From Eledone cirrhosa (taxonomy: Eukaryota): a stretch of DNA of 64,000 bases. The DNA lies in assembly GCA_964016885.1 (NCBI GenBank), contig OZ024759.1:19096001-19160000 (forward strand), read 5' to 3'. The position numbers were made by a program, and so were the translations under genes. The notes beneath the pieces were generated by a model. The model ran no database searches and had not been told where the DNA came from. It saw only the letters and a program-made list of their open reading frames with translations. Positions within the stretch are counted from its first letter, which is position 1; each line of letters opens with the position of its first letter. Positions 1,381-55,312 of the stretch are shown piece after piece.

Positions 1381-1923
1381 AGCCAGTCCCACTCTCTTAA
1401 ACCAAGATGATATTTACCAAAAAGAAGAATAAGTCAACATCATTGGATACTATCAGGGTTGCAGGTGTTATATCAGAGTTTTCCTTCTCTTAGAATTCTG
1501 CCTTGACAAAGGCTAAGGGGTCATCTCTCCCGGTGATTTTGGATGGCCATTGACTCTTAAGAGCTCCTTGCCAGGTTTTGTTTTAGTCCTGCAGGATGTC
1601 CAAAGTCACCCTCCTCACCAAGAAACCTTGGTGGGGTTGCCCAGTTTAGTCGCCAACGACCCGACCATGGACAGGTTGTACTGGGATACAGGTTACCAGT
1701 AGCACCAACTGGTGACCTGACATAATATATATATATACATATATATATATATACATATATATATATAATACATATATATATATTTATATATATATATATT
1801 TATATATATATATATATATTATACATATATATATATATACATATATATATACATATATATATACATATATATATATACATATATATATATATACATATAT
1901 ATATACATATATATATATATATC

Positions 1924-1954
<31 letters not shown>

Positions 1955-1969
1955 CATAAATTTATATAC

Positions 1970-2034
<65 letters not shown>

Positions 2035-2097
2035 CATATATATACATATACATATATATATATATACATATACATATATACATATATATATATATAC

Positions 2098-2137
<40 letters not shown>

Positions 2138-2198
2138 CATATATATATATATACATATATATATATACATATATATATATACATATATATATATACAT

Positions 2199-3081
2199 GT
2201 AGAATTATTTTGTATTATGAAATCCAAAAACATTTTATTAAATAACAGAATAGAGCGATCGTTATACTGTAACCATCGCTTAAAATCTACATTTTCATAT
2301 TATAAATACTACCAGATTGAACGCCTGTCTCTATCTCCGTTGATTGTCAAAATAGATATTAACATTCTTTATTAGTCTTAATTCTATCAACTCTTCTATT
2401 ATTTACCTTTCAATATAAACTGCTATAGATAAAATGAGATTTCTGATTTCTTGATTCAATTCCCTAAAGCATATACCCAGCTGGCTACTAGCATTGATGT
2501 TATTCAGTAGCAATCGAAATCTCCCCCTTCCCAATTGACACTTTATAATTAATACTACTACACCAAATGACCAGCCCTGTCCACTGTCCAATTGGTCAAG
2601 TAGAGATTAAAATTGGCACTCCCAAAAATTCTTATTTAGATAAAATGAACCATTTACTCATGGTATTCTCATTAGAAACCCATTATATACTTGTTTAGCA
2701 GTAATTTGATTTACCATCTGTCATATACAATCCCCTCTTTTTCTTCCTCTATTACTAATATAAATACTTCAATTTTTCTGATTTTATCCAATTTATCCAA
2801 AATCTCTGAAGAAGTGACAACTGATTATACATTTGCTATCGAATACTTGCTAACATTATATGATTACACAAGCAGCGATACATAGGTATTCCGTCTGTTA
2901 CAGAAACATATGTCAATACCTAATAAATTCCTTTTTAAAAAAAAGCACTTTCATTTTATATTCATCCTTTCTACATTTTCTCCGGAATATAATTTATACT
3001 CGTTGAGCAAACCTGCACGTACGCTGGTTCATCTCTAACGTAACGATATATTATCACTACATTATCGATAACCTGAAATTT
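2199..3081 (+). mobile_element. PLE-like 3' terminus, family B copy 1, with hammerhead-like motif
   Basis: Flanked by (TA)n; 2806-3081 matches 9067-9434; CTGAAGA 2806-2812 and GAAA-CATATG-TC 2903-2914. Confidence 0.6.
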
Positions 3082-3092
3082 TATATATATAT

Positions 3093-3387
3093 GCCAATAG
3101 CCTGGGATTCAAGGGCCCTCAACTCTTCAACAGGCTGCCGAGGCATCTGCGAGACTTGCATGACGTGGAGGTGGATGTCTTTAAGAAACATCTCGACACC
3201 TTGTTATCCAGGATCCCGGATGAGCCCACAGCAAGACACGAGGGAAACCTAAGGGCAGCAGCAACAAACTCCCTCCTACACCAGTGGCCAATCTATACAG
3301 GCTGGAGATAAAATGTGTAGCAACAAGGGCGGTGCCCCAGCATGGCCTCAGCCGGATGGCTGAAACAGGTAAAAGAGTAAAAGAGAA
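3093..3387 (+). mobile_element. CR1/L2-group LINE 3' end (ORF2 C-terminus plus 3' tail)
   Basis: Translates as [46 protein letters not shown]; tail GGTGCCCCAGCATGGCC..GGCTGAAACAGGTAAAAGAG. Confidence 0.75.
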
Positions 3388-3414
3388 TACATATACATAT
3401 ATATATATACACAC

Positions 3415-3445
<31 letters not shown>

Positions 3446-3478
3446 TATATACACATATATACACACATATATATATAT

Positions 3479-3545
<67 letters not shown>

Positions 3546-3552
3546 CATATAT

Positions 3553-3741
3553 AGGAACGAGTAGGGCCCCGACGGCTGAGCTCAAGCCGTTTCGACGGCT
3601 AATTCTGGGCTAAAATAGCCGTCGAAACGGTTGAGCTCAGCCGTCGGGGTCCTACTCGTTCCTATTACCCACTCTACTACCCTAAGTATTGAGTACTTTG
3701 GTGCGTTATGGTCCACCTGGTTCCTTACCACATTTCCTCCG

Positions 3742-3742
<1 letters not shown>
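3553..3742 (+). mobile_element. Fold-back PLE-like element, family A copy 1 (half hammerhead plus tail)
   Basis: (TA)n on both sides; inverted arms spanning 3553-3664; GAAA-CGG..CCG-TC|GGGGTC; unpaired tail 3665-3742. Confidence 0.8.
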
Positions 3743-3785
<43 letters not shown>

Positions 3786-3837
3786 GTATATATATTCATA
3801 TATACGTATATACATACATACATACGTATATACATAC

Positions 3838-3906
<69 letters not shown>

Positions 3907-3907
3907 C

Positions 3908-3938
<31 letters not shown>

Positions 3939-4327
3939 CATACATACATACATATATATATCTATATATATACATACATACATACATATATACATATATA
4001 TATACAACGACTGGTTGTATGTAGCCTTTCGTCGTGTCGTATATGTAAGATGGCGTCTGTGTTTATCAGTAACCTATTACCCAACTTGTTTATATATACA
4101 TGTGTATGTGTGTATCTGCATCTGTGTTTATATGTAAACATATGTGTATGAGTATGGAAGTATGTGCATATGTATGTATATGTGTATGTGTGCGTGTATG
4201 TGTATGTTTTTTTTTTCTATGCATGTGCATATATGTGTTGGCGTGTATGTCAGTGTGTATATGTAAGTGTATGTGTATCCGTGTGTGTGTATGTATATAC
4301 ATGTGTGCATATGTATATATATGTATC

Positions 4328-4442
<115 letters not shown>

Positions 4443-4489
4443 ATTTGTGGGTATGTGTCCATATGTATTTCTGTGAATGTATATATAAG

Positions 4490-4520
<31 letters not shown>

Positions 4521-6296
4521 ATGTTTTTTTTGTCAATGTATGTGCATATGTGTTGGTGTGTATGTCATTGTTTATATATGTGTAAGTGTATGAGTATCTC
4601 TGTGTGTATGTATATGCATGTGTGCATATATATATATATATATGTATATGTATCTATGTGTATGTATATATATGTATATGTATCTATGTGTATGTATATA
4701 CGTATCTGTGTGTATGTGTATGTATGTATGCATTTGTGGGTATGTGTGCATATGTAATTATGCGTATGTCTGTATATGTAGTAATTGTGCACATGTGTGT
4801 ATGTATTTGCACCAGTATGTGTGGGGGGGGGGGAGCACTCGACCTCAACTTTTGCAGTTGGTTCTTGTTTTCACTTTCATTTCTCTCTAACCTCTCTTTA
4901 GGCTATTCAAATATTTTTTTTTTTTTTACACTTCCTTTTTCATTTTTAACATTCTTTGTGGTTGGTTAGAATGAGATTTATGTTAGATCTTTCATCAGCA
5001 ACAAATGCAACAAATGTCTGAACAATGCAGTAGATTATTCTAGTGAATATGCTATCAAGTCAATATCCTCCTAAATGAGATGAAAAAGTGGAAAAAAAAA
5101 AAATTTTAATTATTCATTACCTTGTCGCAAATGATTTATGTTAAAAGTTGGGTTCAATTTATAATGTAGTGTCAATAAGAAGCTGAAGAAGATTTTCTAT
5201 TTTCTATTCGTAGGCTGCTTTGCATTTGGTAGAAGAAAAAATGAAACGTTAGCTCCCTGTGTAGCTGATAGAAAACGTAATATCTTTGTATCCTAAATGA
5301 AAGGAAGGTTTGTAATTTAGGCCCAAAAAAAGCATTTTTTAGTTAATGAGACGAATGTTGCATAATTCGATCCTAGTACTCGATTAGTAGTTTATTTTAT
5401 CGACCCCATAAGGATTAAAAGTAACGATGATCTGGACAAGAATTGTAGCTGGTAGAAAACATATTGTCTTTGAGGCCCAACAACAGTCTTTTTTTTTAGG
5501 TTAGGAGACGAATGTTGCATAATTTGATCCCTGTACTCAGCTAGTAGTTTTCGACCCCGGAATGATTAAAATCAACGATGATCTGGACAAGAATTGTAGC
5601 TGATAGAAAACATATTGTCTTTGTATCCTAAATGAAAGAATGATTTCTAATTTAGACCGAAGATCAGCACGTTTTGTTTTTTAGGTAAGGAGAAAAATGT
5701 CGCATAATTCGACCCCAATACTCGACTAGTACTTTATTTTATCGACCCCGGAAGGATTAAAAGCAACGATGGTCTGGACAGGAATTTGAAATCAGAACGT
5801 AAAGAATCGGGATAAATAACGTTTTTTCTAATTTAGACACTGAACCAACAATTTTTGGAGAGAGATGGATCGATTAGAGGGGAGAAGAGATGGATTGATT
5901 ATATCAACCCCAGTAAATGACTGGTACATTATTTTGTTGATACTGGAAGAATGAAATGTAATGGTCATTTCGGCAGTATTTGAAATCAGAACTAAATAGC
6001 CAGAAAAAATAATTGTTTCTACTTTTGGCACAAATACCCCAGTGTGTGACTGGTACTTTATTTTATCGACTCCGTAAGGATGAAAGGAAAAGTTAAACTC
6101 GGCGGGATTTGAACTCAGACCGTAAAGAACTCAGAATGTAAAGAACCGTAACCCTTGTCACAGTTCCTCCTATATTTCAATAGGAGCTGTGTATAAATTA
6201 GAGCTTTAATTTTAATATTGAATTTTCGGTAAGTTTGTGATTTATCTACACCGGGATTTTCCTGGCACATGTACTTAATTTTATCGTCCCCAGAAG

Positions 6297-8724: not shown

Positions 8725-8822
8725 GTAATAATAATAAAATTGAAGACTAAAATCCAAAGAGGGCTCGATAAGGATAAATATATATCAAATATACAAGAAC
8801 CGTAGAGCAAATATTTATTTTA
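8724..8822 (-). mobile_element. TA-embedded tail fragment, family G (second copy 31901-31975)
   Basis: Two similar copies in (TA)n; the minus strand of this copy forms a GCTC-TA..TA-TC-GAGC hairpin. Confidence 0.55.
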
Positions 8823-8845
8823 ATAAATATATATATATATATATA

Positions 8846-9037
8846 ACGAAGGAAATGTGGTAAGGAACCAGGTGGACCATAACGCACCAAAGTACTCAAT
8901 ACTTAGGGTAGTAGAGTGGGTAATAGGAACGAGTAGGACCCCGACGGCTGAGCTCAAGCCGTTTCGACGGCTAATTCTGGACTGAATTAGCCGTCGAAAC
9001 GGCTTGAGCTCAGCCGTCGGGGTCCTACTCGTTCCTA
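8846..9037 (-). mobile_element. Family A copy 2
   Basis: Reverse complement of 3553-3742; fold-back centre GGCTAATTC-TGGACT-GAATTAGCC. Confidence 0.85.
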
Positions 9038-9066: not shown

Positions 9067-9434
9067 AGAAAAGGTGAATATAAAATGAAAGTGCATTTAT
9101 AAAGGAATTTATTAGGTATTGACATATGTTTCTGTAACAGACGGAATACCTATGTATCGCTGCTTGCGTAATCGTATAATGTTAGCAAGTATTCGATAAT
9201 CAGTTGTCACTTCTTCAGTTGTCACTTCTTATATGATACATAGGTATTCCGTCTATTACACAAACATATGTCAATACCTAATAAATTCCTTTATAAAAGC
9301 ACTTTCATTTTATATTCACCTTTTCTACATTTTCTCCGGAATATAATTTATACTTGTTGAGCAAACCTACACGTACGCTGTTCATCTCTAACGTGACGAT
9401 ATATTATCACTACATTATTGATAACTTGAAATTT
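9067..9434 (+). mobile_element. Family B copy 2 (fold-back; tail may extend to 9530)
   Basis: Minus arm 9067-~9218, plus arm ~9235-9327, then a tail matching 2974-3081. Confidence 0.75.
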
Positions 9435-9548: not shown

Positions 9549-9734
9549 AGGAACCAGTAAGACCCCAACGGCTGAGCTCAAGCCGTTTCGACGGCTAATT
9601 CAGAATTAGCCGTCGAAACGGCTTGAGCTCAGCCGTCGGGGTCTTACTGGTTCCTATTATCCACTCTACTACCCTAAGTATTGAGTACTTTGGTGCGTTA
9701 TGGTCCACCTGGTTCCTTACCACATTTCCTTCGT
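9549..9734 (+). mobile_element. Family A copy 3
   Basis: Near-perfect palindrome centred on GGCTAATTC-A-GAATTAGCC plus the same tail; (TA)n flanks. Confidence 0.85.
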
Positions 9735-9751
9735 TATATATATATATATAT

Positions 9752-10156
9752 ATATTGTTATACTTGGGGAGGGTCATATTTGTGTAATAATATTGCCAGA
9801 ATTAATAACAGAACACACTCACTGTTTGGTTGGTTTTCGCTTCTGTAACTTTTATATCGGTTAATTTAATTTATTCGGTCCTCAATGTTGCCATTGACTG
9901 ACCAACGCTCAAAAATACAGACACAATATAGACACAAACACATATATATAGTCTATCAAAGTTCTTTCGTTGCACATCGTCAGTGGTGCTATTATGTTTC
10001 CTCCCGTTGCATTGTATGCTTACGCCAAACTCTGAGTGTGTTCTGTTATTAATTCTGGCAATATTATTACACAAATATGACCCTCCACAAGTATAACAAT
10101 ATTTGTTTCGACACGATTTCATATAAAAAAAACCTCGCAAAGCTAATTCATCGCCG

Positions 10157-10191: not shown

Positions 10192-10319
10192 AAAGTTCTA
10201 TTTAAAATTGTTGGGATACAACAAGTAAATATTTTTATAACTAATATAAAGCACTCGACAAGTATTTGGAGTAGATATACGATATTAATAAATTTAAACT
10301 ATATTTATAAAACCATATT

Positions 10320-10618: not shown

Positions 10619-10805
10619 AACCAGTAAGACCCCGACAGCTGAGCTCAAGCCGTTTCGACGGCTAATTCTGTCCAGAATTAGCCGTCGAAACGGCTTGAGC
10701 TCAGCTGTCGGGGTCTTACTGGTTCCTATTACCCACTCTACTACCTCAAGTATTGAGTACTTTGGTGCGTTATGGTCCACCTGGTTCCTTACCACATTTC
10801 CTTCG

Positions 10806-10840: not shown

Positions 10841-11040
10841 AGTAAGTAAGACCCCGACGGCTGAGCTCAAGCCGTTTCGACGGCTAATTCTGTACTGAAT
10901 TCAGTACAGAATTAGCCGTCGAAACGGCTTGAGCTCAGCCGTCGGGGTCTTACTTACTCCTATTACCCACTCTACTACCCTAAGTATTGAGTACTTTGGT
11001 GCGTTATGGTCCACCTGGTTCCTTACCACTTTTCATTCGC
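10838..11040 (+). mobile_element. Family A copy 5
   Basis: Palindrome centred on GAATTC; both arms share GAGTAAGTAAG/CTTACTTACTC. Confidence 0.85.
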
Positions 11041-11501: not shown

Positions 11502-11932
11502 AAAGATTTATTTAAAATTGTTGGGTTACAACGAGTAAATATTTTATAACTGATATAAAAGCACTCAACAGGTTTTGGAGTAGGTTTACGATATTAAACA
11601 AATGGAAACTATATTTATAAAACCATATTTATTTCGTTATATATATTTCTGGGATATCATATTAAAAATATGGTATGCCTTCCTCAGACAAAATACAATA
11701 TGTTTTATAAATAATTTTGACATACCTTAGAATAATGCAACTTCCATTTAAAAAATCAACTTTTTAAATGGAAGTTGCATTATTCTAAGGTATGCCAAAA
11801 TTATTTATAAAACAGCTTATATATTGTATTTTGTCTGAGGAAGGCATACCATATTTTTAATATGATATCCCAGAAATATATATAACGAAATAAATATGGT
11901 TTTATAAATATAGTTTCCATTTGTTTAATATC

Positions 11933-12383: not shown

Positions 12384-12577
12384 CGTAGGTCCCGGGTTGA
12401 GTCGGGGATAACCACAGTAAGTAAGGTACTCAATACATGGCAGAGTAAAAAATTTTTATTTTATAGAAGGAGCTTCTACAGGACTAGTACTGTTTCATTC
12501 AGATGAAATCTTCAGGAAGCTTCCTGAAGATTTCATCTGAATGAAACAGTACTAGTCCTGTAGAAGCTCCTTCTATA

Positions 12578-14399: not shown

Positions 14400-14572
14400 T
14401 GAGATTCTACAGGACTAGAACTGTTTCATTCTTTAGAAATCATCAGATGATTTCTAAAGAATGAAATAGTTCTAGTCCTGTAGAATCTCATCTATATTAA
14501 AACTTTTATACTCTGCAATGTATTGAGTACCTTACTTACTGTGGTTACCTCCGATTCAACCCGGAATAACGT
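14391..14572 (+). mobile_element. Family D copy 2
   Basis: Arms 14391-14444 / 14446-14499 centred in the CTGATGA core; tail 14500-14572 homologous to 12383-12458. Confidence 0.8.
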
Positions 14573-17195: not shown

Positions 17196-17976
17196 ATTTC
17201 GGATTTTAAAGTATATACAGTACATGCCTTGCAATACATTACATTGTGTTACGTTGTGTTTCATCGCCCCGTGTATAAACGTCGTTTATATTCCTTAGTA
17301 TCCACTACATTTAGCAGACCCTCGCACATATAAGCTCGAAGTTATTGTTAATGCGTCCTCTAGAATCCACAACTAGGAATCCCAATTGTCAGATTTGTCA
17401 ATGTAGAATTTTACCTTATGCAGAGAAGAGCTCTGCATGTGTACATATTTTCCTGGCTACATTTTTTTGTGTCTTATAACATTAAATAATAATGGTTTCT
17501 ACTTTTGGCACAAGGCCAGCAAATACCCAGTGAATTACTGGTACTTTATTTTATCGACCTCATAAGGATGAAAGGCAAAGTTAACCGCGGCGGGATTTGA
17601 ACTCAGACCGTAAAGGGACGTAACTCAGAATAACTGTTTCTACTTTTGGCACAAGGCCAGCAATTATCCAGTACATTACTGGTACTTTATTTACTGGGTA
17701 ATTGCTGGCCTTGTGCCAAAAGTAGAAACAGTTATTCTGAGTTACGTAACTCAGAATAACATTAAATAATAATGTTTCTTTTTATATAACAATCATTTAT
17801 ATAACATAATCACAACAACTGTTTATGTAAATAAACATTTAATAATGTTTTTCTTTTTCTTTTTTTTTATATAAATCTTTTTTTTCCAGAGAAACACTAA
17901 CGCGATAAACGTTGTCGAACGATTCTACATGCTGCAGAGACACACAAAATTATTTTCAATATATATATATATATAT

Positions 17977-18250
17977 ACGATATTAAATAAATGGAAATTA
18001 TATTTATAAAACCATATTTATTTCATTATATATATTTCAGGGATATCATATTAAAAATATGTTATGCCTTCTTCAGACAAAATACAATATAAACAGTCTT
18101 ATAAATAGATAGATTCGACATACCTTTTCAACTTCGACTTGCATTTGAAAAGTTGATTTGGTAAATATACTCCAAATACTTGTTGAGTGCTTTTATATCA
18201 GTTATAAATATTTACTTGTTGTAACCCAACAATTTAAATATAACTTTCCA
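17977..18250. mobile_element. Family C copy 4 (minus-strand hammerhead arm plus plus-strand tail)
   Basis: Same layout as 14593-14874; tail hairpin 18168-18189. Confidence 0.75.
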
Positions 18251-18256
18251 TATATA

Positions 18257-18603
18257 TTTCGTTTCTGAATTTGTTTAGCAAGATTCTTTATCTGAAATCG
18301 TGTGTTGAAACCGATATTGTTTGACACACAGAAACAAAATGGCGTAGGATAGAAGAAAGAAAAGGCACAGAAACGAAGAAAGGAATCCCCAGTCACTGAA
18401 GAGGTCACAGAGTGTGTGACGAAAGGACTATGACTGTATATATAAACAACTATCTGGTTGTGGAACCAACCAACCAACCAGAAATTTATAAGTTTGTAGA
18501 TTTGTAAATTTATAAATTTATAAATATATAATAAATTGAAGTGAAAGCAACTGGTGCGTGTGTTTCTTATTGGCAACATGACCCTCCCAAAGTATAACAA
18601 TTT

Positions 18604-18605
<2 letters not shown>
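18257..18605 (+). mobile_element. Family F-related element
   Basis: Ends ATGACCCTCCCAAAGTATAACAAT like the arms of 9752-10157; TA flanks; contains a hammerhead. Confidence 0.65.
18390..18436 (+). ncRNA. Type I hammerhead ribozyme (family F)
   Basis: CAGTCA-CTGAAGA-G-GTCACA-GAGTG-TGTGAC-GAAA-GGAC-TA|TGACTG, with perfect 6-bp stems I and II. Confidence 0.85.
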
Positions 18606-18671
<66 letters not shown>

Positions 18672-18904: not shown

Positions 18905-21009
18905 ATTTCTTTATTAGCCACAAGGACACAAAAGAAAGGGACAAATACAAATGGGGAGTTTACATACAGGTATATGAAAATAAAACTATTAATAAAATAA
19001 CAAATAACAATTGAAATCCCCAATGGGGAGGAGGCGTTACACAGGGGTTGTACACACCCCGAAAAAATGTACAACCCTCATCTCCAGGAGCACCAAGAGT
19101 AAGTACTCCCTTCCTCTCTTCCTCTTTTTCCTCAACCAACAGGCTTATATAGAGAGAAGGCCCAACCACTCGGGCCATCTTTGCCAGATTCCCCCACCTT
19201 TTATAAAATTTGCTGGGGTACAGCACCTCTCTCTACATCCTGATTCTTCTTCCAAAATTATATTTGAAAAAACAAATCAGTTGTTCGCCGGAGAGAAAGC
19301 TGTCTGACCTCAGCCCTTTTAACCTCGTCCACCATAGTCATAACACATAGGAAAACCTCCTCTCCCTCGTTTTTGAAGGAGGGTGGCGGTTTGATCATGA
19401 TAATGGACTCGGTGGTCAACTGGATTGGTCCCACCCGCGACAATAGCCGTTCTACATAGCCCCACGGGTCAGTGACGCCCGGGCAGTGTATGAATGCGTG
19501 CGCGACGGTTTCTTCGTCTCGCACGCAACTCGGACAGATCTTTTTTGCAGGGACCCTGCCCGGGCGCCCATGTCTGTAGAGCTTGTCTCGAACTGGTAGA
19601 GCTCCTCGGTAGCACTGCCAGGCCAGGGACTTTTGGAAGTTGTCCATCGGTCCCCGGCGGAAGGTCCTACCGAACAGACTGGCCAGTTCGTCTTCCTCTA
19701 CGCCTAGAGTTTCACCAAGCGCGTCGTCACACTTGCTGCGGATCAACCCTCTATAGAATGACGAAGTGGAGTCTCCACTGATCGCCGGGTCCGCCTGCCA
19801 GAGAGCTGTGAGCGCCTGAGCACATTCGATGTGCCAGTCGCCCATTTTCCTCGGTCTTTGCTTGACCCAGGACTGCAGCTCGGTCAGCGAGACGAGTCGT
19901 GGGAAGGCTCGCCTCACGAACGGGTCCACACCAGTTGTCCGGTGAGGAATACGTAGAGATGCCGCAGCCTGAGCGCGTGTTTGTGCATCGTCAGCCACGG
20001 CATCCCCAGCCCTCCGTTAGAAGGGTGTTGGCAGCAGATGGATCTTCTCACCAAAGGAGCCCGTCTCTTCCAAAAGAATTGGAAGAGCGCGCGCTCCATT
20101 TTGGTGAGCGTTTTGGCTGGACAAGGCACGACGGTCAAGCAGTAGTAGATGGCGGACGCTATAAAAGTGTTCGCCACCTCCGCTCGACCTTTCAAGGATA
20201 GTTTGCACTCGGCCCACTTCTGGGTGAGTGCAAACACCTTGGCCGTCACTTCGTTCCAGTTCTTCTCCACCTGGAGGTCCGGACCAAACCAGACCCCGAG
20301 CAGCTTTACCGGTCCTTCCGTCCAGCGTCCTACGACGCCATCGGAAGGCATCGGTTTGCCTCTCCACGGTCCGAGTTGCAAACCGATGGACTTGTCTCGG
20401 TTCAGCTTCGCTCCTGTGAAACTTTCGTATTCCTTCAGTAAGGTGCCGACTTCCTCGATATGCGAGGCGCTCGACACCATTACTGTCACGTCGTCGGCGT
20501 AGGCCGACGCCGCTTTCCGCAGCCCCGGTTCCAGAGGGATGCCCTGCAATAGCTCCAACTTCCGCAGTATTGGCTCGAGAGTCAATACGTACAGAAGGGA
20601 GGAGAGAAGGCATCCCTGTCGAATGGATCGCGTAATATGGAACGGCTCCGAGAGGTAGCCGTTCACCTTGAATCTTGAGCAGATGTTGCTGTTATGCATT
20701 GCAGCAATCCAGCCCCTGAACACGGGTCCGAAGCCTGCCGCCTCGAGCACCGCATCCAGGTAACGATGGTCAACCCTATCAAAAGCCTTAGACTGATCCA
20801 AGTTGATCAGGGCCCCAGCGAAGCCGGGTTTACACCCTACCATCTCTATGATATATCGCATGAGGTGAAGGTTGTCGTGTATGGACCTGGTCGGGATTGC
20901 GTATGTCTGCGCTTCTCCCACCAGGTTTTCGACAACAAGCGCCAGCCTCTTTGCCAACACCTTGACCAAAATCTGTAACTCTGTGTTTAGCAGAGTTATG
21001 GGCCGGAAA
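18905..21009 (-). mobile_element. 5'-truncated Tx1-like (L1 clade) LINE: RT plus C-terminal zinc finger, frameshifted
   Basis: FRPITLLNTE, LDQSKAFDRVDH, QGCLLS, YADDVTV, GGLG; CPSC..ETVAHAFIHC; 3' AATAAA; (GATA)n on both sides. Confidence 0.92.
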
Positions 21010-21063
21010 GTGGATAGATAGATAGATAAATAGATAGATTGGTAGGTAGGTAAGTAGATAGAT

Positions 21064-21665
21064 ATTGGGATGGCCAAAAGGTTGGTTCTGGTTTTTAAGA
21101 AAAAATAAGATAAGTCATTTATTCAATCAATCATATAATTACAGTCTCATTCGAGTGTGTTCCGTCATTTTCTAAGCAGATTCATTATTCCACTTTCAAA
21201 GAATTTTTAATTGAATTTTTAAATCCTCTTCGGAATTGAAGGTTTGTCGATTCAACGATTTTTGAGGAGACCGAAACTGGAGGAAATCTGGAAGCGCAAG
21301 GTCGAGTGAATATGGAGGGTTTGACAAAACTTCCCAGTCAAGGCCCAGTAACTTCTGCTGCGTCAGCAAAAAGTGTGGTCTGGCACTGTTGTGCTTACGA
21401 TTAGCTAGTGCTTGATTCTTCTGATGAATCGCTGCGTTTTATTTGTCCAGCTGGTCAGAGTAAACATCCGAATTGATTGTCATGTTCATGGGGAGAAGCT
21501 CGAAAAAAAGATACCCTTTCCACCAAATTGAAAGCATATCCTTCATCGGATGAAGTTCTGCTTTGAAGGTTGTTTGTGATGGTTCACCGCGCCTCCCCAT
21601 GATAGTTTTCACTTCACATTGTTATAGACAATCCATTTTCCGTCCCCCCGATACCATTCTCATTA
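21064..21665 (-). mobile_element. Mariner transposase remnant
   Basis: Minus-strand pieces GDGKWIVYNNVK, GEPSQTTFKAELHP, HNSARPH, WEVLSNPPYSLDLA (compare YSPDLAP); TIR-like ATTGGGATGGCCAAAAG. Confidence 0.85.
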
Positions 21666-22019: not shown

Positions 22020-22260
22020 GTGGCCATATGTGGTGTGGTGGTGGTGGTGCTGCTGCTGCTGGTGATGGTGTTGGTGATGTTGATTGTGATGATATTGATA
22101 GTAATGACGGTGGTGGTAATGTTGATGGTGGTAGTGGTGGGTGTAATGGTGGTGATGATGATGATGATGAAGACTGTCATGATGTTGATTGTGATGACAG
22201 TTGTGGTAATGTTGATGGAGGTGGTGGCGATAATAATGATGATGATGATGATGATGGTAA
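22020..22260. repeat. Degenerate (GGT/GAT)n triplet repeat
   Basis: Direct reading. Confidence 0.95.
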
Positions 22261-22482
22261 TAATTGTTTCTACTTTTGGCACAAGGCCAGCAATTACCCC
22301 AGTGTATTACTGGTACTTTATTTTATCGACCCCGTAAGGATGAAAGGTAAAGTTAACCTCGATGGGATTTGAACTCAGACCGTAAAGGGACGTAACTATG
22401 CTTGAAAGCATGGCGTCCGACCCTCTACCGATACTGCCAATTCACCGCCCTTGATGGTAATAATAATAATAATGACGATGAC

Positions 22483-22515
<33 letters not shown>

Positions 22516-23137
22516 GGTGGCAAAATCGTTACAACGTCGGATAGAATGCCTTGTGGTATTTGCAGTATTTGTTCCGGCTTTCTACTCTCTGAATTGAAAT
22601 CCCGCCGAGGTCAACTTTGCCTTTGATCCATTCGAGGTTGATAAAAAAAAGTTCCAGTCTAGTAATGAGGATGGTTCTTCCTCTATATCTCTTTCCTATT
22701 TCCATTCTCCCATTTTCTATCCTTCTATATTCAGGCCTGGAGAGGAGATGGGCTCCACCATGTTTTAAAATGCTCTAGAAACGTCTTATGTTAATAGGGC
22801 GCTCCTACAACTCCCTCGGGGGTTACGGGACAAAGAGAAAAAGGAAACCGTTTTGTATAAAGATTGTATCGTACTTATGGGTCCGTAACACCTGATTGAA
22901 CCGTAGGGACGTCGTCTTGGGCATTTTAAACCTGGTGGAGCCCATCCCGTCTCCAAGTCTGAACGCAGCAGATTTCTTCTAGAGAAAGAGTGAGGAGGGG
23001 GGGGGGATATATAGTGAAAGAATCAAGCCCAGCACTGGACTTGTACCTTTTTATCGACCTCGAAAGTATGAAAATCAAAGATGGAATTTGAACTCAGAGC
23101 ACTGAAACATACACCCCAAAGCATTCTACTCAACATT

Positions 23138-23750
23138 CTAACGACTCTGCCAATTCGCCACCTTGTATAAAGATTGTATTCTAAATATGGACCCGTAAAT
23201 CCTGATAAAATCGTAGGGGCGTCGTATTGAGCACTTTAAGCCTGGTGCACAGTACATACCCTCTCCAAGTTTGAACACAACAGATTTGGAGTTTGGGTGT
23301 GCGAAAGTATAGAATGTAAAGCTTTCTGTCCAGCATTCTAACGACTCTACCAATTCGCCGCCTTGTATAAAGATTGTATTCTAAATATGGACCCGTAAAT
23401 CCTGATAAAATCGTAGGGGCGTCGTATTGAGCACTTTAAGCCTGGTGCAGTACATACCCTCTCCAAGTTTGAACACAACAGATTTGGAGTTTGGGTGTGC
23501 GAAAACATACGATGTAAAGCTTTCCGTCCAGCATTCTAACGACTCTATCAATTCGCCGCCTTGTATAAAGATTGTATTCTAAATATGGGTCCGTAAATCC
23601 TGATAAAATCGTAGGGGCGTCGTATTGAGCACTTTAAGCCTGGTGCACAGTACATACCCTCTCCAAGTTTGAACACAACAGATTTGGAGTTTGGGTGTGC
23701 GAAAACATACGATGTAAAGCTTTCTAACGACTCTATCAATTCGCCGCCTT
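23138..23750. repeat. ~200-bp tandem repeat, 3 units, SINE-derived
   Basis: CTAACGACTCT recurs at 23138, 23338, 23536 and 23724 with near-identical intervening sequence. Confidence 0.92.
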
Positions 23751-24972
23751 GTAACTTCTGATGGACAGAATCGTATGGGCGCCGTATTGACATACGGTGT
23801 TTCTTGAGCATTTTGTAATGCCTGGTGGCGTCCATCTCTTTCCAGGTCTGAATACAACAGATTTCTTCTAGAAAAGACTAGAGTGGAAGAATGGTAGTGG
23901 TGGTGAGAAAGAGATATAGAGGAAGAATTGATCCCAGGACTTGACTGGTACTTTTTTTTATCAATCTCGAATGGTGGAATTTGAACTCAGAGTGTAGAGA
24001 GCCGGAAAAGCATTCCACCTGACGTTCTAACGGCGCCTTAATAAAGATTATAAGCATGTTGAATAGAGAATTTTGCGAAATATCATCATGATAATTCCTC
24101 ATAACTCATAAAAGGCAAATTACTTTAGCTGATATGACTTATGTTACATTACAAGTTATTTGAAATAAGTGAGAAATATTGTTGGTTTCAAGTGGTGTTC
24201 CGAGTGATAATTAAGTTGCAAAGAGACATTTATTCTTATTAACATTGCACAACCTGGGAAATTCTTACTATATTAAATTGTTGAAATGAACGTTAAATTG
24301 CTCGCATCAACATAGGAAATTGGTGAAAACAATGCAAGATTGTAGAAAGAATATATTGGTACAAACATTATAAACACGTATATATAAACTTATTTCCTTT
24401 GCTCTAAATATCTGTTGATATTTAAGGGGAAGGCAATGAATTGACAGAGTCGTTAGATAGTCGAATAGAATGCTTTGCGGTATTCGTTTCGGTTCTCTGA
24501 GTTCAAATCCCGCCGAGATTAACTCTTCCTTTCATCTATTCGAGGTCGATAAAAATGAACCAGTCTAGTTCATCCTCTATATCTCTTTCTCACTTCCGTT
24601 CTCTCACCCTATCCTTGTCTGGAAGAAATCTGTTGTATTCCGACCTGGAGAGGAGATGGACTCCGCCAGATTTTTTTTTTTTAATGCCCAAGAAACGATA
24701 TATGTCAACACCGCGCCCTTACGACTCCCTCGGGAGTTACAGGACCATACATACATTTAAGTGTGGGAAATTAGTAGGTAGAGCGTTGAACAAAATATTT
24801 TTTGGTATTTAGTTACGTCTCTTTACGTTCTGAGTTGAAATCCCGCCGAGGTCAACTTTGCCTTTCATGTTTCCGGAGCCAATAAAATAAAATATCAGTT
24901 ATATACTGGAGTCAACATAATCGACTTTTCTCTTACTCTAAAATTCTGTCCTTGCGCCTCAGTTAAAAATGA

Positions 24973-34960: not shown

Positions 34961-35753
34961 CGGGGCAGTCCGAAAGTCTTGTCACTCCTTGTCACATATT
35001 GTTTTAGTATCGGTAGAGAGTCGGACGCCATGCTTTGACGCATAGTTACGGCCCTTGCCATTCTGAGTTCAAATCCTGCCGAGGTTAACTTTGCCTTTCA
35101 TCCTTACGGGGTCGATAAAATAAAGTACCAGTAATGTACTGGGTATTGTTGGCCTTGTGCCTAAAGTAGAAACAATTATTTTGATCTGAGTTCAGCACTT
35201 TATGGTCTGAGTTCAAATCCCACCGAGGTTAACTTTGCCTTTCATCCTTACAGGGGTCGATAAAATAAAGTACCAGTAATACACTGGGATAATTGCTGGC
35301 CTTGTGCCAAAAGTAGAAACAATTAATTATAATATATAATAATAATTGTTTCTACTTTTGGCACAAGGCCACCAATTACCCAGTACATTTCTGGTACTTT
35401 ATATTATCGACCCTGTAATGATGAAAGGCAAAGTTAATCTCGGCGGGATTTGAACTCAGTTCGTAAAGGAACGTAACTCTATGCTGGAAAGCATGGCATC
35501 CGACTCTCTACCGATACTGAATAATAATATAATTTTCTATTTCAGAGCTCCTACAGTTTGGAAGAGAGGTTGCTTGCAAGTGTATGGACACGTGATCATA
35601 TGCATTCTGGCAAGAGCATGGCGGATGTGCGACATGACTTCACTGCAAGATCCAGCAAACCAGCTCCTCCGAAGAGGACGATACTGCGATGGGAACATAA
35701 ACTGTTTCTCATTACTTTTTGGTAGGGGGTGACAAGACTTTCGGACCACCCTG
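34961..35753. mobile_element. Non-autonomous Tc1-like element with three nested family-1 SINEs
   Basis: TIRs CGGGGCAGTCCGAAAGTCTTGTCACTCCT / GGGGGTGACAAGACTTTCGGACCACCCTG; TA on both sides; SINEs at ~35007-35520. Confidence 0.8.
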
Positions 35754-38889: not shown

Positions 38890-38891
<2 letters not shown>

Positions 38892-39144
38892 TGGCTGCCA
38901 ACTCGTTTTCGAGTACGGCCACTACTTTATATCCATGTAGGAGAACCCCTACCGATGCGCTGAACAAGTGTGACTTTTTAGTCCAGCCAGCGACTTGAAA
39001 ACTCTGGTACAAACACTACACTTGTGACAATTATTGACACATAGTGCTGGGCCCATGGTACCATGTGATGACAAGTGCAGAGAGATCTCCAGATATAAAG
39101 CAATGCCTGTGCCGTGAAGCTTTTATAGTGAGCAAAGGCACTGC

Positions 39145-39148
<4 letters not shown>
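38890..39148. mobile_element. Family H copy 2
   Basis: Bounded by (TA)n on both sides; matches 1123-1380. Confidence 0.8.
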
Positions 39149-39181
<33 letters not shown>

Positions 39182-40259
39182 TTTGAGGGCCTTCTCTAAA
39201 AAATTTGAGTAGAGAAATTTTTAATAATCAAACAAGATTATTATTTTATATATATTTAGGGCGGTGAATTGGCAGTATCGGTAGAGGGTTGGATTATGCT
39301 TTCCAGCATAGTTATGTCCCTTTACGATCTGAGTTCAATTCCCGCCGAGGCTAACTTTGCCTTTCATCCTTACAGGGTCGATAAAATAAAGTACCAGTAA
39401 TGTACTGGGATAATTGCTGGCCTTGTGCCAAAAAGTAGAAACAATTATTTTGTATATATTTGAAAAAGCAAAACATACCTGAGGAATGCAGAGTCGAGTT
39501 CAATCTGTAACAGATCCTGCCTTGAGCTGATCGTCGAAGATGTTAATAAATATGCTGTAAATAATATGTTAATAAATTATATTTTGATGCATTAGTGATT
39601 CCTCGTTAACTATAATAATTGTTTCTACTTTTGGCACAAGGCCAGCAAATTACCCAGTACATTACTGGTACCTTATTCTATCGACCCTGTAAGGATGAAA
39701 GGCAAAGTTGACCTCGGCGGGATTTGAACTCAGAATGGAAAGGGCCGTAACTCTATGCGTCAAAGCATGGCGTGCAACTCTCTACCGATACTGCCAATCC
39801 ACCAATAATATACTCTGCTCTGTACGAGCATCGAGTGCTCAAACGGCCTACCGCCTACGGACACATTTAATTGCAGCCATACAACAACTATATATATTTA
39901 ATTTTTAATGTCTTTGTATTAAAAATGTTTAAAAAACATTTTAAAAATGAGGTCTTCGGAGGTGTGTGGCCCTAAGCTATAGCTTATACAGTTTATATCC
40001 AGCACTGCAAACTGCTCTCTGTAGCTGCTTCACTCTGATAACAACATATTTGTAAAATGAATGGATATCACTTTGTCTATTTGCCTAACACACTCATTAA
40101 CCTTTGATTGATGTCTCATAAATGAAAAAGGTCATGCAACTGAAATCAATTCATTACACTAAAGCGTGTCTAAGATAACCGATTTTCTCTTCACAGAATG
40201 GCTTCAAATTAACCTATACAATTCGATAAATTAACATTGTCACTCAGTGTGAATTTATA

Positions 40260-42140
40260 ATAATGGCTTCTTAAACAGGCACAAGGCCAGCAATTTGGGG
40301 GGAGGGGAAAGTCGATTAAACCGACCCCAGTGCGTGACTGGTACTTTATTTTACCGAACCCGTAAGAATGAAAGGCAAAGTTAACCTGGGCGGAATTTGA
40401 ACTCAGATCATAAAGGGCCGTAACTCTATGTTGCAAAGCATGGTATCTGACCGTCCGCCGATACTGCCAATCCATTTTATAATAATTGTTTCTACTTTAG
40501 GCACAAGGCCAGCAATTACCCAGTGCATTACTGGTACTTTATTTTATCGACCCCGTAAGGATGAAAGGCAAAGTCAACCTCGGCGGGATTTGAACTCAGA
40601 TCGTAAAGGGACGTAACTATGCTGGAAAGCATGGCGTCCAACCCTCTACCAATACTGCCAATCCACCGCCTAATTTAGGCACAAGGCCAACAATTTTGAG
40701 AAGAGTGAAAGTCGATGAAAGTCAACACCAGTACATTACCGGTGCTTTATTTTATCGAACCCGTAACGATGAAAAGCAAATCTAACCTCGGCGGGATGCC
40801 ATAAAGCCTATTGTCCGATTCTACTGCCAATCTACCGTCCATAGCGAGAATTTATAATAATGGTTTCTGATTTAGACCCAAGGCCAACAGATTTGAGGAG
40901 AGGCAAAGTCGATGAAATCAACCCCAGTGTATTACTGGTGCTTTATTATTATAGTGATACCCGTAACGATAAAAAAGAAGGTGGATCTCGGGGGAATTTG
41001 AATACACAATCATCATCATCATCATCATCATTTCATTTTACGTCCGCTTTTTCCCTGCTTGCAAGGGTGGGACAGGAACTGATACTGGCTTGATTTCTAC
41101 AGCTGGATGCCCTTCCTAACACCAACCTCATTTACAGTGAGTGCTGGGTGCTTTTTTGCCGTGGCACCTCCACGACCACTTTACAGTGGAATGATATGGA
41201 CCCCAGTCCCTATCATCTCATTTCTACAGCTGAGTAAACTGGAGCAATGTAAAATAAAGTGTCTTGCTCAAGGAAACAACACATCACCCGGTCTGAGAAT
41301 TGAACTCACAACCTTTCGATTGCAAGGCCAATACTCTAACCACTAAGCCATGCGCCTCCATGTAAGCATTTAATTCCATCAGTCTAACGAATCTATCTAT
41401 TCCCCACTTTCTAACAATTTATAAGAATTTTAATAATAATTGTTTCTATTTTTGGCACAAGGCCAGCAATTACGACAGTGCATTACTGGTACTTTATTTT
41501 ATCGACCCCATAAGGATGAAAGGCAAAGTTAACCTCGGCGGGATTTGAACTCAGACCGTAAAGGGCCGTAACTCTATGCTGCAAAGCATGGTGACCGACC
41601 CTCTACCGATACTATCAATCCACCGCCCTTATTTTAATAATTGTTTCTACTTTTGGCACAAGGCCAGCAATTATTTCAGTGTATTACTGGTACTTTATTT
41701 TATCGACCCCGTAAGGATGAAAGGCAAAAATGGTTTCTTATATAGACAGGCACAAGGCTAGCAATTTTGGGAGAGGGGGAAGTCGATTAAATTAACCCGT
41801 GTGTGACTGGTACTTTATTTTATTGACCCCGTAAGGATGAAAGGCAAAGCTAACCACGGCGGGATTTGAACTCAGATCATGAAGGGCCATAACTCTATGC
41901 TGCAAAGCATGGTGTCCGACGCTCTATCGATACTGCTCTCCTCTATCGAATAATAATTGTTTCTACCTTTGGCACAAGGCCAGCAATTACCCAGTGTATT
42001 ACTGGTACTTTATTTTATCGACCCCGTAAGGATGAAAGGCAAAGTTAACCTCGGCGGGATTTGAACTCAGGCTATAAAGGGCCTTAACTCTTTGCTGCAA
42101 AGCATGGCGTCCGACCCTCTACCGATATTGCCAATCCACC
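40260..42140 (-). mobile_element. Same-orientation array of about 8 family-1 SINEs plus one family-2 SINE (41010-41359)
   Basis: Repeated TAATAATTGTTTCTACTTTTGGCACAAGGCCAGC..GGCGGGATTTGAACTCAG units. Confidence 0.9.
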
Positions 42141-44820: not shown

Positions 44821-45943
44821 TGTCATCATCAACATCACTGTTTAATGTTCATTTTTCAATGCTAGCAAAGGTTAGGCGAGTTGTCCCATTTGAGACAACC
44901 CAGGTCAGGTGACCCTGTCTTTGCTCATAGAGAACTGTTTCTGTCTTGGATTCTATAGTTGGATGCCTTTCCTAATGTCAACCACACTTACAGTGTGGAC
45001 TGGGTACTTTTTATTGTGGTACTGAAACTTATATCATAGCATGTATCAAGTACATTTTGCATCATACTATGTATTGAGTACTACTCAAATATACCATAGA
45101 TAATATATATCGAAGACACCCTTTGGTCACAAATGACCATGTGACTTGCACCTAGAAAGTTTCCCTCCAAGGAACAAGTTCAGGCAAGGTTGTTTGAGGA
45201 AGACCAGCAGTCACCCATGCACATCAGCCTCCCCTCCACGCCACCAATGATGTCCAAGGGAAAGGCTATAGCCAATACAGCTTGGCTCCAGTGACCTCAC
45301 AACTCATTTCTACAGCTGAGTAAACTGGAGCAACATGAAATAAAGTGTCTTGCTCAAGGACATAACGCATCACGAAAATCAAACTCAAAAACTTTTCATT
45401 GCAAGCCCAATGCTTTAACCACTAAGCCATGAGCCTTCAATAATATTGTTTCTACTTTTGGCACAAGGCCAGCAATTACCCAGTGCATTTCTGGTACTTT
45501 ATTTTATCGATCCTGTAAGGATGAAAGGCAAAGTTAACATCGGCGGGATTTGAACTCAGATCATAAAGTGCAGATGATGCACCTTCAATAATATAAAAGA
45601 TGCTGATATTACATAAATGGCTTATTCATCATAATTATTTCAATGGTTCCCTCGTGCAACCTCAAATGTAATATCAGCATCTTTTTTATCCTTATACTGA
45701 ATCTCCATCGTAATTACACACTATGAAGGAAGAGAGCTTTCTCCTGCTTGCTCCTGCTTTTTCACAAAAACAACTTTTACTGAACACATATATATAAATG
45801 TATATATACCTGAACAGTTCGGATCTAGCTGTTGAAACGGCAGGAGCTGAGCCATCGAGGTCCCAAATCATTCATATTACCCACTCTACTACTCCAAGTG
45901 TGGTGTAACTGGATTTTACTGCATCCATTCTGATATATATATA

Positions 45944-46840: not shown

Positions 46841-47010
46841 ACGGAGGAAATGTGGTAAGGAACCAGGTGGACCATAACGCACCAAAGTACTCAATACTTA
46901 GGGTAGTAGAGTGGGTAATAGGAACAAGTAAGACCCCGACGGCTGAGCTCAAGCCGTTTCGACGGCTAATTCTGGCCTGCTTGAGCTCAGCCGTCGGGGT
47001 CTTACTTGTT

Positions 47011-47046: not shown

Positions 47047-47270
47047 GGAGGTGAGTTTTATTGTAGTACAATAAAGCAATGCAGATATCGGATAAGAAGC
47101 ACTCTACAGTTTGTTGATTTAAAACTGCACTATCCACAAGTGTTTTTTAGCCTTCATATCATGTTCTCCTGTTTTATCTGATGAAAACACAAATATTATT
47201 GCATGATGATGTTTGTTTTTGAAATGTGCATAATAAAATATATGGAACTCCTTTAACCATCTTTTGATCT

Positions 47271-47329: not shown

Positions 47330-48408
47330 TAAGAGAGAATAAATGAGAGAGAGAGAGCTGATCTATATATTGCAATTTGAGCATTGACTCAAGAAATTAG
47401 GTATTAATCTTCTTCATTTGTGTATCATCTGACAAGTTTTGAAATGATTAGATAAGCCGTGTATTGAAATGATTAGATAAACCCGTGTGTTGGCAGACTT
47501 ACGTCAACATAGTTATATGTTATATGATAATTAACATAAAGTGAACATGAAAGAGAAAACTGAAAGAAATACTGTAAGTAATACATTACAGTGTCAACAT
47601 CTGTACGATATCTAACTGAATAAGAAATATTCAAGATGAACACATAGTCGTCTAGTTTAACAACTTCTGATATTGCAACTTGACAGCATCGGTAGAAGAT
47701 TAGACGCCATACCAGCAGAGTTATATCCCTTTACGGTCTGAGTTCAAATTCCACCGAGGTTAACTTTGCCTTTCATCCTTATGGGGTCGATAAAATAAAG
47801 TACCATTGAAATAAAGTACCATTGTGCGAAAAGTAAAAACAATTATATATACACTATATACACCACATATACACCACATATAAACTACACTATATGATAT
47901 CCAATGGACCTTTTGGTAGCCTCTTTCAAAGAGTTTCTCCAGAATGTTCATTCCAGAGGAAATAAAGAGATATGATGTTGATTACATATAAATATACTAA
48001 GACCCACTCCCCCAGCCTATCTGGGAGGTCAGTAACTCCACTTCAATACTGACTTGGTCTATGTAGACCCAACTAACCCTTGGTAGCAGAGAAAACAGGT
48101 GTTAAATGATGGTGTTGGAGATAAAATATGGATATACTAAAATATACAATAGAAATTTAGAGATTACATATGGATATACTAAGACTCTCCCACCAATACC
48201 CCACACCCTGGCCTGTCTGGAGAAACTCTTTGAAAGAGGCTACCAAAAGGTCCATTAGATATCATATAGTGTAGTTTATATGTAGTTTATATGTGGTGTA
48301 TATAGTGTATATATAATTGTTTCTACTTTTCGCACAATGGTTTCTTCAGTACAGACTTGGTCTATGTAAACATTTCTGACCCCTGCCAGCAGGTAAAGCA
48401 TCCATTAA

Positions 48409-51602: not shown

Positions 51603-52111
51603 TCAAAAAATAACTTTAGAATTGTAGGCAATACCTGGATTCCATAGGAAGGATTACATCAGGTATTCTTATGTCTTCTAATTCTTTTATAAGTAGGTAC
51701 TTGAATTTTATTAGTATCATTTTGGTGAATATTATATATAGTATTAAAATACCTCAGACTGAACTTATTTTCTATAGTAAGAAAAGAGCAGTTGATTGGC
51801 AGTATTGGTAAAGAGTCGGATAACATGCTTTGTGGTATATATTTCTAGCTCTGAGTTCAATTCCAGCTGAGGTTAGCTTTGCCTTTCGTCTATACGAGAT
51901 CAATAAAATAAAGTAAGATACCGGAGCTGATATAATTGTCTTTTACCCCCAACTCCCTAAATTGTTGGCCTTGTGCCTAAATAAACCATTATAGTAGGAT
52001 TGTCTTGGTTTCTTCTCTTCCTCATTACTAAGGGTTGTGTACCATGGACAGTTGCACCAATACTAATCTATATGATTGTAGAGAATTTAATAAAAATTGA
52101 TAGACACATTT

Positions 52112-52759
52112 TTCAAATGCAGACGGGTGCTATAGAAGTAGTTGATAGCTTCCGATACCTAGGAGATCAGATTAGCATGGGAGGGGGGTGTTCCGAGGCC
52201 ATAGTATCTAGAATAAGGACGGGTTGGAAGAAGTTTAGGGAGCTGCTTCCTCTGCTGATGAAGAAGGGTTTATCCCTGCGTACGATAGGCCGGTTATATG
52301 ATGCCTGTGTGAGGAGCGCGATGCTGCATGGTAGTGAGACATGGGCAACAACTGCAGAAGATATGCGACGGCTGGAGAGAAATGAGGCAAGCATGCTATG
52401 TTGGATGTGCAATGTCAATGTGTGTGAACAACCCAACATGGATGTGTTGAGAGAGAAACTGTGTCTGAGAGGGATAGAATGTAGTGTGTGAGAGAGGAGA
52501 CTGCGGTGGTATGGACATGTGATACGCATGGAGGATGGCCGATGGGTGAAGAAGTGCCAGGAAATGCCAGTTGAAGGAAGACGTGGTAGAGGTAGACCAC
52601 AAAAAACATGGGCGGAGGTGGTGAGAACAGACCTCAGATCGCTGAAGCTCACGGTAGAGATGACAAACGACCGTGACAAGTGGAGAGATGCTGTGCTGAA
52701 TAAGACCCGTCCCACCCTAGCAAGCAGGGAAAAGCGGACTTAAAATGATGACGATGATG
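52112..52759 (+). mobile_element. RTE LINE 3' part (one in-frame stop); partner of SINE family 2
   Basis: VVDSFRYLGD..LHGSETW..*ERRLRWYGHVIRM..RGRGRPQKTW..DRDKWR; (GAT)n tail. Confidence 0.92.
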
Positions 52760-55137: not shown

Positions 55138-55312
55138 ACGACTGAGGTGTGGTACGGAACCAGATGGACTATAACGCACCAGAGTACTCAATACTTAGGG
55201 TAGTAGAGTGGGCAATAGGAAAATGTTTAACCCGTTTCAACGGCTATTTCTGGAGTCCAGAAATAGCCATCGAAACAGCTTGAGTTCTGCCGTCGGGGTT
55301 AAACATTTTCTC
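55138..55312 (-). mobile_element. Family A copy 10 (diverged)
   Basis: Tail plus fold-back centre GGCTATTTCTGGA-G-TCCAGAAATAGCC. Confidence 0.8.

Follow-up and report, generated by a model that had tools for sequence, protein, structure and literature searches.

The window, the whole 64,000-nt stretch of Eledone cirrhosa DNA that was analysed, carries within a TA repeat a short insertion of family A composed of an inverted arm, a sense arm and a tail (Table 1). Short inserts with this layout, (TA)n - antisense arm - sense arm - tail - (TA)n, are frequent in the 3.0-Gb genome. The truncated inserts consist of pLTR ends plus the tail and are identified by their sequence as 5'-truncated copies of Hydra-clade Penelope-like retrotransposons (PLEs) within (TA)n; insertion into (TA)n was confirmed for them. 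The antisense arm of the family A insertion corresponds to cDNA begun at site 1.

Table 1. Features of the family A insertion and copies of hairpin 1 in the window.
Feature	Position	Strand	Basis or remark
Inverted (antisense) arm, family A insertion	3554-3604	-	starts at (TA)n; palindrome 3553-3663, 89%
Sense arm, 3' half of pLTR hammerhead	3605-3662	+	GAAA 3624-3627; stem I GGGG 3646-3649
Predicted hammerhead cut, family A copy	after C3645	+	sequence; intact unit L164
Site 1, TA where inverted arms stop	3663-3664	+	9 nt ahead of CTC; loose ends at L164:786
PLE tail, 80 nt, site 1 to site 2	3663-3742	+	hairpin 2 missing from truncated copy
Hairpin 1, family A: ACTC-TACT-acccta-AGTA-TT-GAGT, then ACTT	3671-3698	+	string match, alignment
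Hairpin 1, family B, outer pair T-C mismatched	2979-3008	+	pattern scan
Hairpin 1, second family B copy	9333-9362	+	inverted arm at 9067-9151
Hairpin 1, family G, long inner stem-loop	8763-8808	-	pattern scan, tail clusters
Hairpin 1, family A copy	8894-8917	-	pattern scan
Hairpin 1, family A copy	9663-9686	+	pattern scan
Hairpin 1, family C copy with both arms	10253-10272	-	pattern scan
Hairpin 1, family A copy	10735-10758	+	pattern scan
Hairpin 1, family A copy	10969-10992	+	pattern scan
Hairpin 1, family C copy	11563-11581	-	pattern scan
Hairpin 1, family D-like copy	12428-12446	-	pattern scan
Hairpin 1, family D, 28 nt past canonical hammerhead cut site	14510-14528	+	pattern scan
Hairpin 1, family C copy without sense arm	18169-18188	+	pattern scan
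Hairpin 1, family E: ACTC-TGCTC-tgtac-GAGCA-TC-GAGT	39812-39836	+	pattern scan; not in initial annotation
Hairpin 1, family A copy	46889-46912	-	pattern scan
Hairpin 1, family K, 3' half only, at chimeric arm-tail junction	47100-47114	-	pattern scan
Hairpin 1, family A-like copy	55186-55209	-	pattern scan

The complete family A element, reached by extending family A both ways to an intact unit (L164), is a 3531-bp tandem unit with a 717-aa ORF. Read by motif, this ORF encodes an RT (YRDD) followed by a C-terminal GIY-YIG domain (VIY...YIG); Pfam gave no match for ORF pieces or for two whole proteins. The N-terminal motif is RWR in A, C, D, G and CL12 and RWK in L256 (a metagenome contig from another animal), DKG is modified to DKT in A, C, D, G and L256, and the CxCX5C linker reads CNCPDRSIC in A and CSCPKNATC in L256, being out of view in C, D and G. 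In the family A endonuclease (EN), CNLC and CKH are present by eye, one Cys lies within the GIY-YIG core, and CCHH is absent. The parents of C, D, G and CL12 carry the same N-terminal or RT motifs as family A. RT identity is 42-53% among A, C, D and G and 36-39% to L256. Because RT plus GIY-YIG, RWR, DKT, CxCX5C, CNLC, CKH and the lack of CCHH agree with the feature list in the available text of PMC8557442, family A and its allied parents are assigned to the Hydra clade as new members, by motifs and with the published references compared as text. With the Hydra-clade EN+ PLEs described there (Craig et al. 2021) they share a single ORF with RT then GIY-YIG, RW[KR], DKT and CxCX5C, no CCHH, a hammerhead that is canonical in some families, (TA)n targets, and tandem and inverted pLTRs with a tail; the tails are 30-40 nt in that account and 60-165 nt in the families described here. 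A Neptune/Nematis-type PLE was rejected for family A, in which both the CX2-5CxxC linker and the EN CCHH are absent, as was a Naiad/Chlamys PLE, which requires an N-terminal EN whereas that of family A is C-terminal. Long open frames occur in many copies genome-wide (784 codons in A, 758 in D, about 750 in C), some of them in tandem arrays, and family A has dozens of copies with the 784-codon frame. The sequences of families A, D and C indicate recent activity.

A canonical hammerhead is present in family D and L256. In the hammerheads of family A and CL20 (L164:679-769; L051), U3-A8 replaces the C3-G8 core pair (UUGANAAG), a compensatory variant overlooked by standard CUGANGA searches; natural U3-A8 hammerhead variants are known. 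Hammerhead stems I and III were not found in family C, and Rfam at gathering score gave no match in the 64-kb window, SECIS included.

Several other repeats were recorded. CL4 (window positions 9755-10155 and 18258-18620; L305, L302, L311) is a TA-targeting PLE of arm-plus-tail layout that lacks the CTC/GAG hairpin; with a CX4CxxC linker and an EN of the CCHH kind, it is of the Neptune/Nematis type. L031 (minus strand, about 1400-5400) holds a Neptune-like PLE ORF with a 672-aa open stretch, and related copies (L020) carry a minimal hammerhead. A 30-bp satellite array from the CL12 tail lies at G000:C4:80498900-80505600 (L356-L358). An abundant SINE-like repeat of 150-190 nt is present in the window at 5992-6154, 17480-17642, 22252-22448, 35333-35529, 39607-42140 and 45433-45595, and as inverted pairs at 35198-35468 and 17618-17747. 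Non-LTR (LINE) RT coding fragments are located at 19258-21122 (minus), 51985-52491 (plus) and 53929-54300 (minus). The window further includes a MITE-like element with terminal inverted repeats of about 60 bp (47880-48280), a repeat starting directly after (TA)n without an inverted arm (1120-1720 and 38890-39170), and tandem repeats of about 200 and 140-150 bp (23060-23800, 56600-58220, 60360-60700).

Conservation and covariation of the hairpin

The motif is a conserved bulged hairpin, RCTC-stem-loop-stem-TN-GAGY-(RCY), confirmed at the sequence level as real and above chance. The initial annotation had described it as CTC/GAG pairs with a 2-nt bulge; this was borne out, and the motif proved to be longer, usually followed by RCY, with a bulge of T plus any base. 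The strings quoted there were found in place for A (3671-3694), B (2980-3007), C (18168-18189), D (14509-14529) and G (8763-8808, minus). The K string is present at 47097-47125, but its CAGTTT/AAACTG pairing is not the family stem because at this chimeric junction the hairpin loop is interrupted midway by the fused inverted arm; the intact family K hairpin is ACTC-CAGT-cccacaa-ACTG-TA-GAGT (L028). The proposed start of the hairpin within about 15 nt of the arm end in A-D applies to other C copies (10253-10272) but not to the C copy at 18169, where the right arm is missing.

Arm-plus-tail inserts were extracted without reference to the motif from 1.28 Mb in 286 sequences (464 kb of blind tiles, the remainder flanks of searched loci), yielding 195 elements and 30 tail clusters. 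CTC-stem-NN-GAG occurs near the tail start in 16 of the 30 cluster representatives, one of these clusters being a deleted family A copy. In 1000 dinucleotide shuffles of the tails, the check that the initial annotation had named, the mean was 0.28 and the maximum 3. The same motif was found in 1/30 arms and 4/30 reverse complements. The strict motif is missing from the other 14 clusters, among which are CL9 with a compensatory core GTTC/GAAC, CL12 with a 1-nt bulge, CL21 with a point change, two mis-parsed arms, CL4 of the Neptune/Nematis type, and CL10 with a canonical hammerhead. Arm-plus-tail families in which the motif is absent include CL10 (L097, L245), CL6 (L119, L128, L194) and CL23/27 (L105, L131). 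A loose pattern scan of the 64-kb window was less selective: it gave 21 matches, where 30 block shuffles gave 6.5 (maximum 16). Within one 3531-nt unit, the pattern matches at the two hairpin sites only, on the sense strand. Searched with a covariance model, Hydra elements gave the expected sites and nothing was matched inside CL4 parents or a Neptune-like element, the matches at those loci falling in flanking Hydra inserts. A likeness of TCGAGTGC to the Pol III B-box was rejected by eye against the consensus, which the second base pair misfits.

Inner stems that vary between families and yet stay paired, as the initial annotation had claimed, were confirmed. In a pairing-blind test, CTC and GAG were picked in 16 families regardless of pairing; with a 2-nt bulge, inner pairs 1-4 formed in 13, 14, 13 and 8 of the 16, compared with 1-9/16 at bulges of 1, 3 or 4 nt and 6, 14, 3 and 6 at bulge 0, and the total was unmatched by any of 20000 column shuffles. 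In alignment A2 (MAFFT with short flanks, CL29 included, three one-inner-pair hairpin-2 rows excluded), 94.5% of 128 cells are paired against 72.1% in shuffles, none of 500 shuffles being equally high, a statistic that leans towards structure because rows were picked as motif carriers. Double changes number 36 against 12.2 shuffled and affect six of eight pairs, and these cells are not independent events because the families are related (RT 42-53% identical). RNAalifold on A2 gives the identical structure unprompted. The core C-G is swapped for U-A in one family, and inner pairs 1-3 contain five G-U and no A-C cells on the sense strand. In a DNA sequencing run, family A variants of >=10% are located in either of the two loops or after RCY, or convert C-G into U-G. 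Outside the motif, tails are unalignable between families. The exact fold is marginal in RNAfold: core pair probabilities are 0.48 and 0.77 in family A and < 0.35 in 7/16 family representatives (two of these mis-anchored), and hairpins 1 and 2 are able to cross-pair.

Insertion ends and the second hairpin

Uncut elements bear a second copy of the motif just beyond the tail end, overlooked in the initial annotation, and the motif is an element of the 5' UTR, lying upstream of the ATG in all Hydra parents recovered (A, C, D, G, CL12). Past the tail end, uncut family A reads TA-TCTA-GCTC-CTAC-tccc-GTAG-TA-GAGC-ACTT (hairpin 2). Hairpin 2, predicted from family A, was clear in 5/9 other families, so that it is clear in 6/10 testable families (A, C, G, CL9, CL20 and the L256 element) and degenerate in four. 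It has one inner pair in C and one in G, and its loop in G is UUCG in 6/23 and CUCG in 17/23 copies, both being cYNMGg-type RNA loops. Degenerate second sites were seen in single copies of CL5, CL12 and B. Family D, with intact ORFs, has no CTC/GAG hairpin 2 and just GCAC-5 nt-GTGC at that offset; its tail ends are still clustered. Hairpin 2 was never seen in truncated inserts, and read-through copies were scarce in blind pattern searches (C 1/20, D 1/20, K 0/20 and CL12 1/18 examined).

The (TA)n-adjacent 3' ends were mapped onto single-copy references of A, C, G and D, in which 28-44 TA dinucleotides are available. Each family shows two sharp end peaks, insertion ends lying mostly 7-11 nt 5' of a hairpin copy, and 426 of 448 ends fall 3-16 nt before a hairpin (A 159/160, C 123/132, G 68/73, D 76/83). 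The family A peaks lie 9 nt before the CTC of hairpin 1 (51/61 site-1 ends) and 7 nt before that of hairpin 2 (91/98 site-2 ends); site-2 counts are inflated because loci were fetched with tail queries, and blind tiles show the same two peaks. Ahead of hairpins 1 and 2, respectively, the peaks are at 8 and 10 nt in C, at 7/11 and 4/7 nt in G, where the register shifts because the TTA run is variable, and at 6-7 and 6-10 nt in D. In family D, 25/39 site-1 ends lie at 6-8 nt, where the reference is without a TA. Spacing is constant to the junctions, whereas the hairpin lies about 25-90 nt from the ATG and at a variable distance, about 25-56 nt, from the hammerhead cut. In blind tiles and unrelated flanks, 40 two-ended inserts of a single family were scored: 36 combine site 1 at one end with site 2 at the other, four have one unassigned end and none uses the same site twice; the exception among searched loci is one family A insert with a tail at both ends (L002). 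Hairpin 1 is copied in every tail-bearing end.

Two groups of ORF-less tandem repeats, CL9 (period 527 nt; L184, L023, L113, L214) and CL20 (L051, L195), carry a hammerhead and both hairpins. Because they lack ORFs, translation is unneeded for upkeep of the motif. Their sequences mark them as retrozyme-like partners of Hydra PLEs. The metazoan non-LTR retrozymes in the available texts of PMC7229834, PMC7761336 and bioRxiv 10.64898/2026.07.22.740005 are likewise ORF-less tandem units with type I hammerheads. Those of PMC7761336 show, as far as its accessible text goes, no conserved motif indicating a mobiliser, whereas CL9 and CL20 bear both Hydra hairpins.

The motif also occurs in other animals. 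L256 encodes an ORF of 37% identity with two motif copies in the 5' UTR, and the downstream pLTR of this element stops at TATA just before the second hairpin (L257, L258). Five of eight metagenome loci (L259-L263) gave short degraded matches with no motif at element ends. Inspected by eye, File S7 of PMC8557442 shows the motif clearly in 3/6 Hydra consensi, namely Hydra-2_Amil of coral and Hydra-2_Ajap and Hydra-1_Ajap of sea cucumber (the last twice, upstream of the ATG). A variant is seen in Hydra-1_Crog of sea louse, a partial motif in Hydra-1_Amil, and no evident motif in Hydra-1_Obim. Six 9-letter words from the 3' half gave seven matches in the 584,131-character supplement of that paper, four at the Hydra sites just named and three in Naiad or Chlamys sequence where no hairpin is present.

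Proposed positioning of cDNA starts

The clade, the non-coding position, the covariation, the duplication, the fixed spacing and the pairing of one site per end are matters of observation. Two RNA hairpins probably determine where TPRT starts internally, with one start for each target strand, and would thereby make the inverted arm and the PLE tail. The initial annotation had suggested an RNA signal that positions priming on a TA target; PLE ends, sense-strand covariation, non-coding position and fixed junction spacing agree with this, and it was incomplete in missing the second copy. The motif would be bound, as RNA, by the RT or the endonuclease. In the proposed sequence of events, the element protein, probably a dimer, would bind both hairpins on one uncleaved tandem or circular RNA, a template required because the arms run back through the entire hammerhead. 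It would nick both strands of (TA)n, the AU-rich single-stranded stretch 5' of a hairpin would enter the RT site, and the nicked TA end would anneal by 1-6 nt. Priming of one strand at site 1 would give the antisense arm and priming of the other at site 2 the sense arm plus tail, the two cDNAs then being joined head to head. The tail would correspond to the distance between the hairpins, and hairpin 2 would never be copied at the terminus.

A precedent is the anole Poseidon PLE, which in vitro starts at two internal RNA sites matching the tail ends and extends both strands of the target, its enzyme being predicted to dimerise (Frangieh et al. 2024, PMC11167929, available text). As proposed here, two internal starts bound the tail of Anolis Poseidon PAc, and the target is likewise AT-rich; the region differs in lying within the ORF, with initiation inside an AC-rich stem-loop which lacks homology to the target. 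Unlike for the elements studied here, no conserved or duplicated motif is described in that text.

Target-strand priming at two hairpins was weighed against four other explanations. The GIY-YIG endonuclease might instead read the motif in DNA and cut tandem or circular cDNA 7-11 nt 5' of it, the ends then marking resolution and not initiation; this is unlikely. It predicts the same fixed spacing and would fit the sequence conservation of RCTC, TN-GAGY and unpaired RCY, but the inner stems stay paired while varying, and their G-U pairs are confined to the sense strand. The TTCG loop variant is C-GAA-G on the opposite strand, a stable DNA loop, whereas the commoner CTCG variant gives no GNA loop there. 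An antisense arm that starts exactly at site 1 beside (TA)n is expected from target-strand priming. The available text of PMC8557442 ascribes the tail to EN-mediated resolution, and in that of PMC11167929 the D. virilis Penelope EN required the tail for cutting plasmid DNA, while the Poseidon enzyme began cDNA at tail ends in vitro.

It is very unlikely that the hairpin is a stop or template boundary on an antisense template used in self-priming, so that ends mark a halt in synthesis as at the telomerase template boundary. Self-priming on an antisense template accounts for head-to-head inverted pLTRs in the accessible text of PMC3846280, and a stop signal likewise yields a fixed distance. Hairpin 1 is, however, copied through in every tail-bearing end, the G-U strand asymmetry favours the sense strand, and the strict pairing of one site per end is not expected of stochastic stops.

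A role in transcription, translation, binding of a host protein to RNA or codon conservation, with nearness to the junction secondary, is highly improbable. The motif does sit in the 5' UTR, with a 3' half similar to codons for [IV]-E-[YCH], and GAGYRCTC is palindromic. A coding explanation was rejected because both copies lie upstream of the ATG, hairpin 1 being out of frame with an in-frame stop in many copies; against a role in expression, both copies are kept in ORF-less CL9 and CL20, and spacing is fixed to junctions and not to the ATG or the ribozyme. Chance or shared ancestry with no structural role is virtually excluded: the motif is short, the families share an ancestor and loose scans give several chance matches per window, but it occurs in 16/30 clusters against 0.28, the tails are otherwise unalignable, compensatory changes are present, and it is found in coral, sea cucumber and metagenome elements.

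Positioning of TPRT starts by paired hairpins may be compared with other RNA signals. Stringent LINE/SINE 3' stem-loops and the R2 3' UTR are structured RNAs recognised in cis by the cognate RT and kept by non-autonomous partners. They are located 5' of a 3'-terminal start and become copied, whereas the PLE hairpin is found in duplicate, 3' of an internal start. A LINE-type 3' recognition stem-loop was rejected for the motif, which lies 3' of internal ends in a precursor that runs on to the ATG. In the elements flanking the telomerase RNA template and in hepadnavirus epsilon, a bulged stem-loop fixes the register of the RT, and the PLE RT is sister to TERT. The comparison concerns form, and the PLE reading implies neither repeat synthesis nor protein priming.

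The elements are known in kind, as members of the Hydra clade, and the motif and its twin arrangement are undescribed as far as searched, in line with the novelty suggested in the initial annotation. Neither was found in searches of openly accessible full text, including the available texts of PMC8557442, PMC3846280, PMC7229834, PMC7761336 and bioRxiv 10.64898/2026.07.22.740005. The words 'hairpin' and 'stem-loop' are absent from the accessible main text of PMC8557442, although the motif can be seen in File S7 of that paper.

On the formation of the PLE tail and the head-to-head ends, internal initiation has been shown in one enzyme without a defined signal, and the present finding supplies a covarying cis-element at a ruler-like distance. 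With this element and very young source families, the mechanism is testable with the existing in vitro assay. The finding also ties ORF-less hammerhead repeats to the clade that mobilises them. In a broader reading, for which the chances appear evenly balanced, the twin motif would be a phylum-spanning, duplicated RNA 'origin' that loads both halves of an RT-endonuclease dimer, with cDNA begun 7-11 nt upstream on both strands. Such programmed twin priming, if true, would account for the tail of PLEs, for their inverted pLTR and for the choice of retrozymes mobilised by a given PLE, and would provide a portable 20-30-nt tag directing a TPRT start inside any RNA. The finding is relevant also to the setting of register on RNA in the sister group of telomerase.
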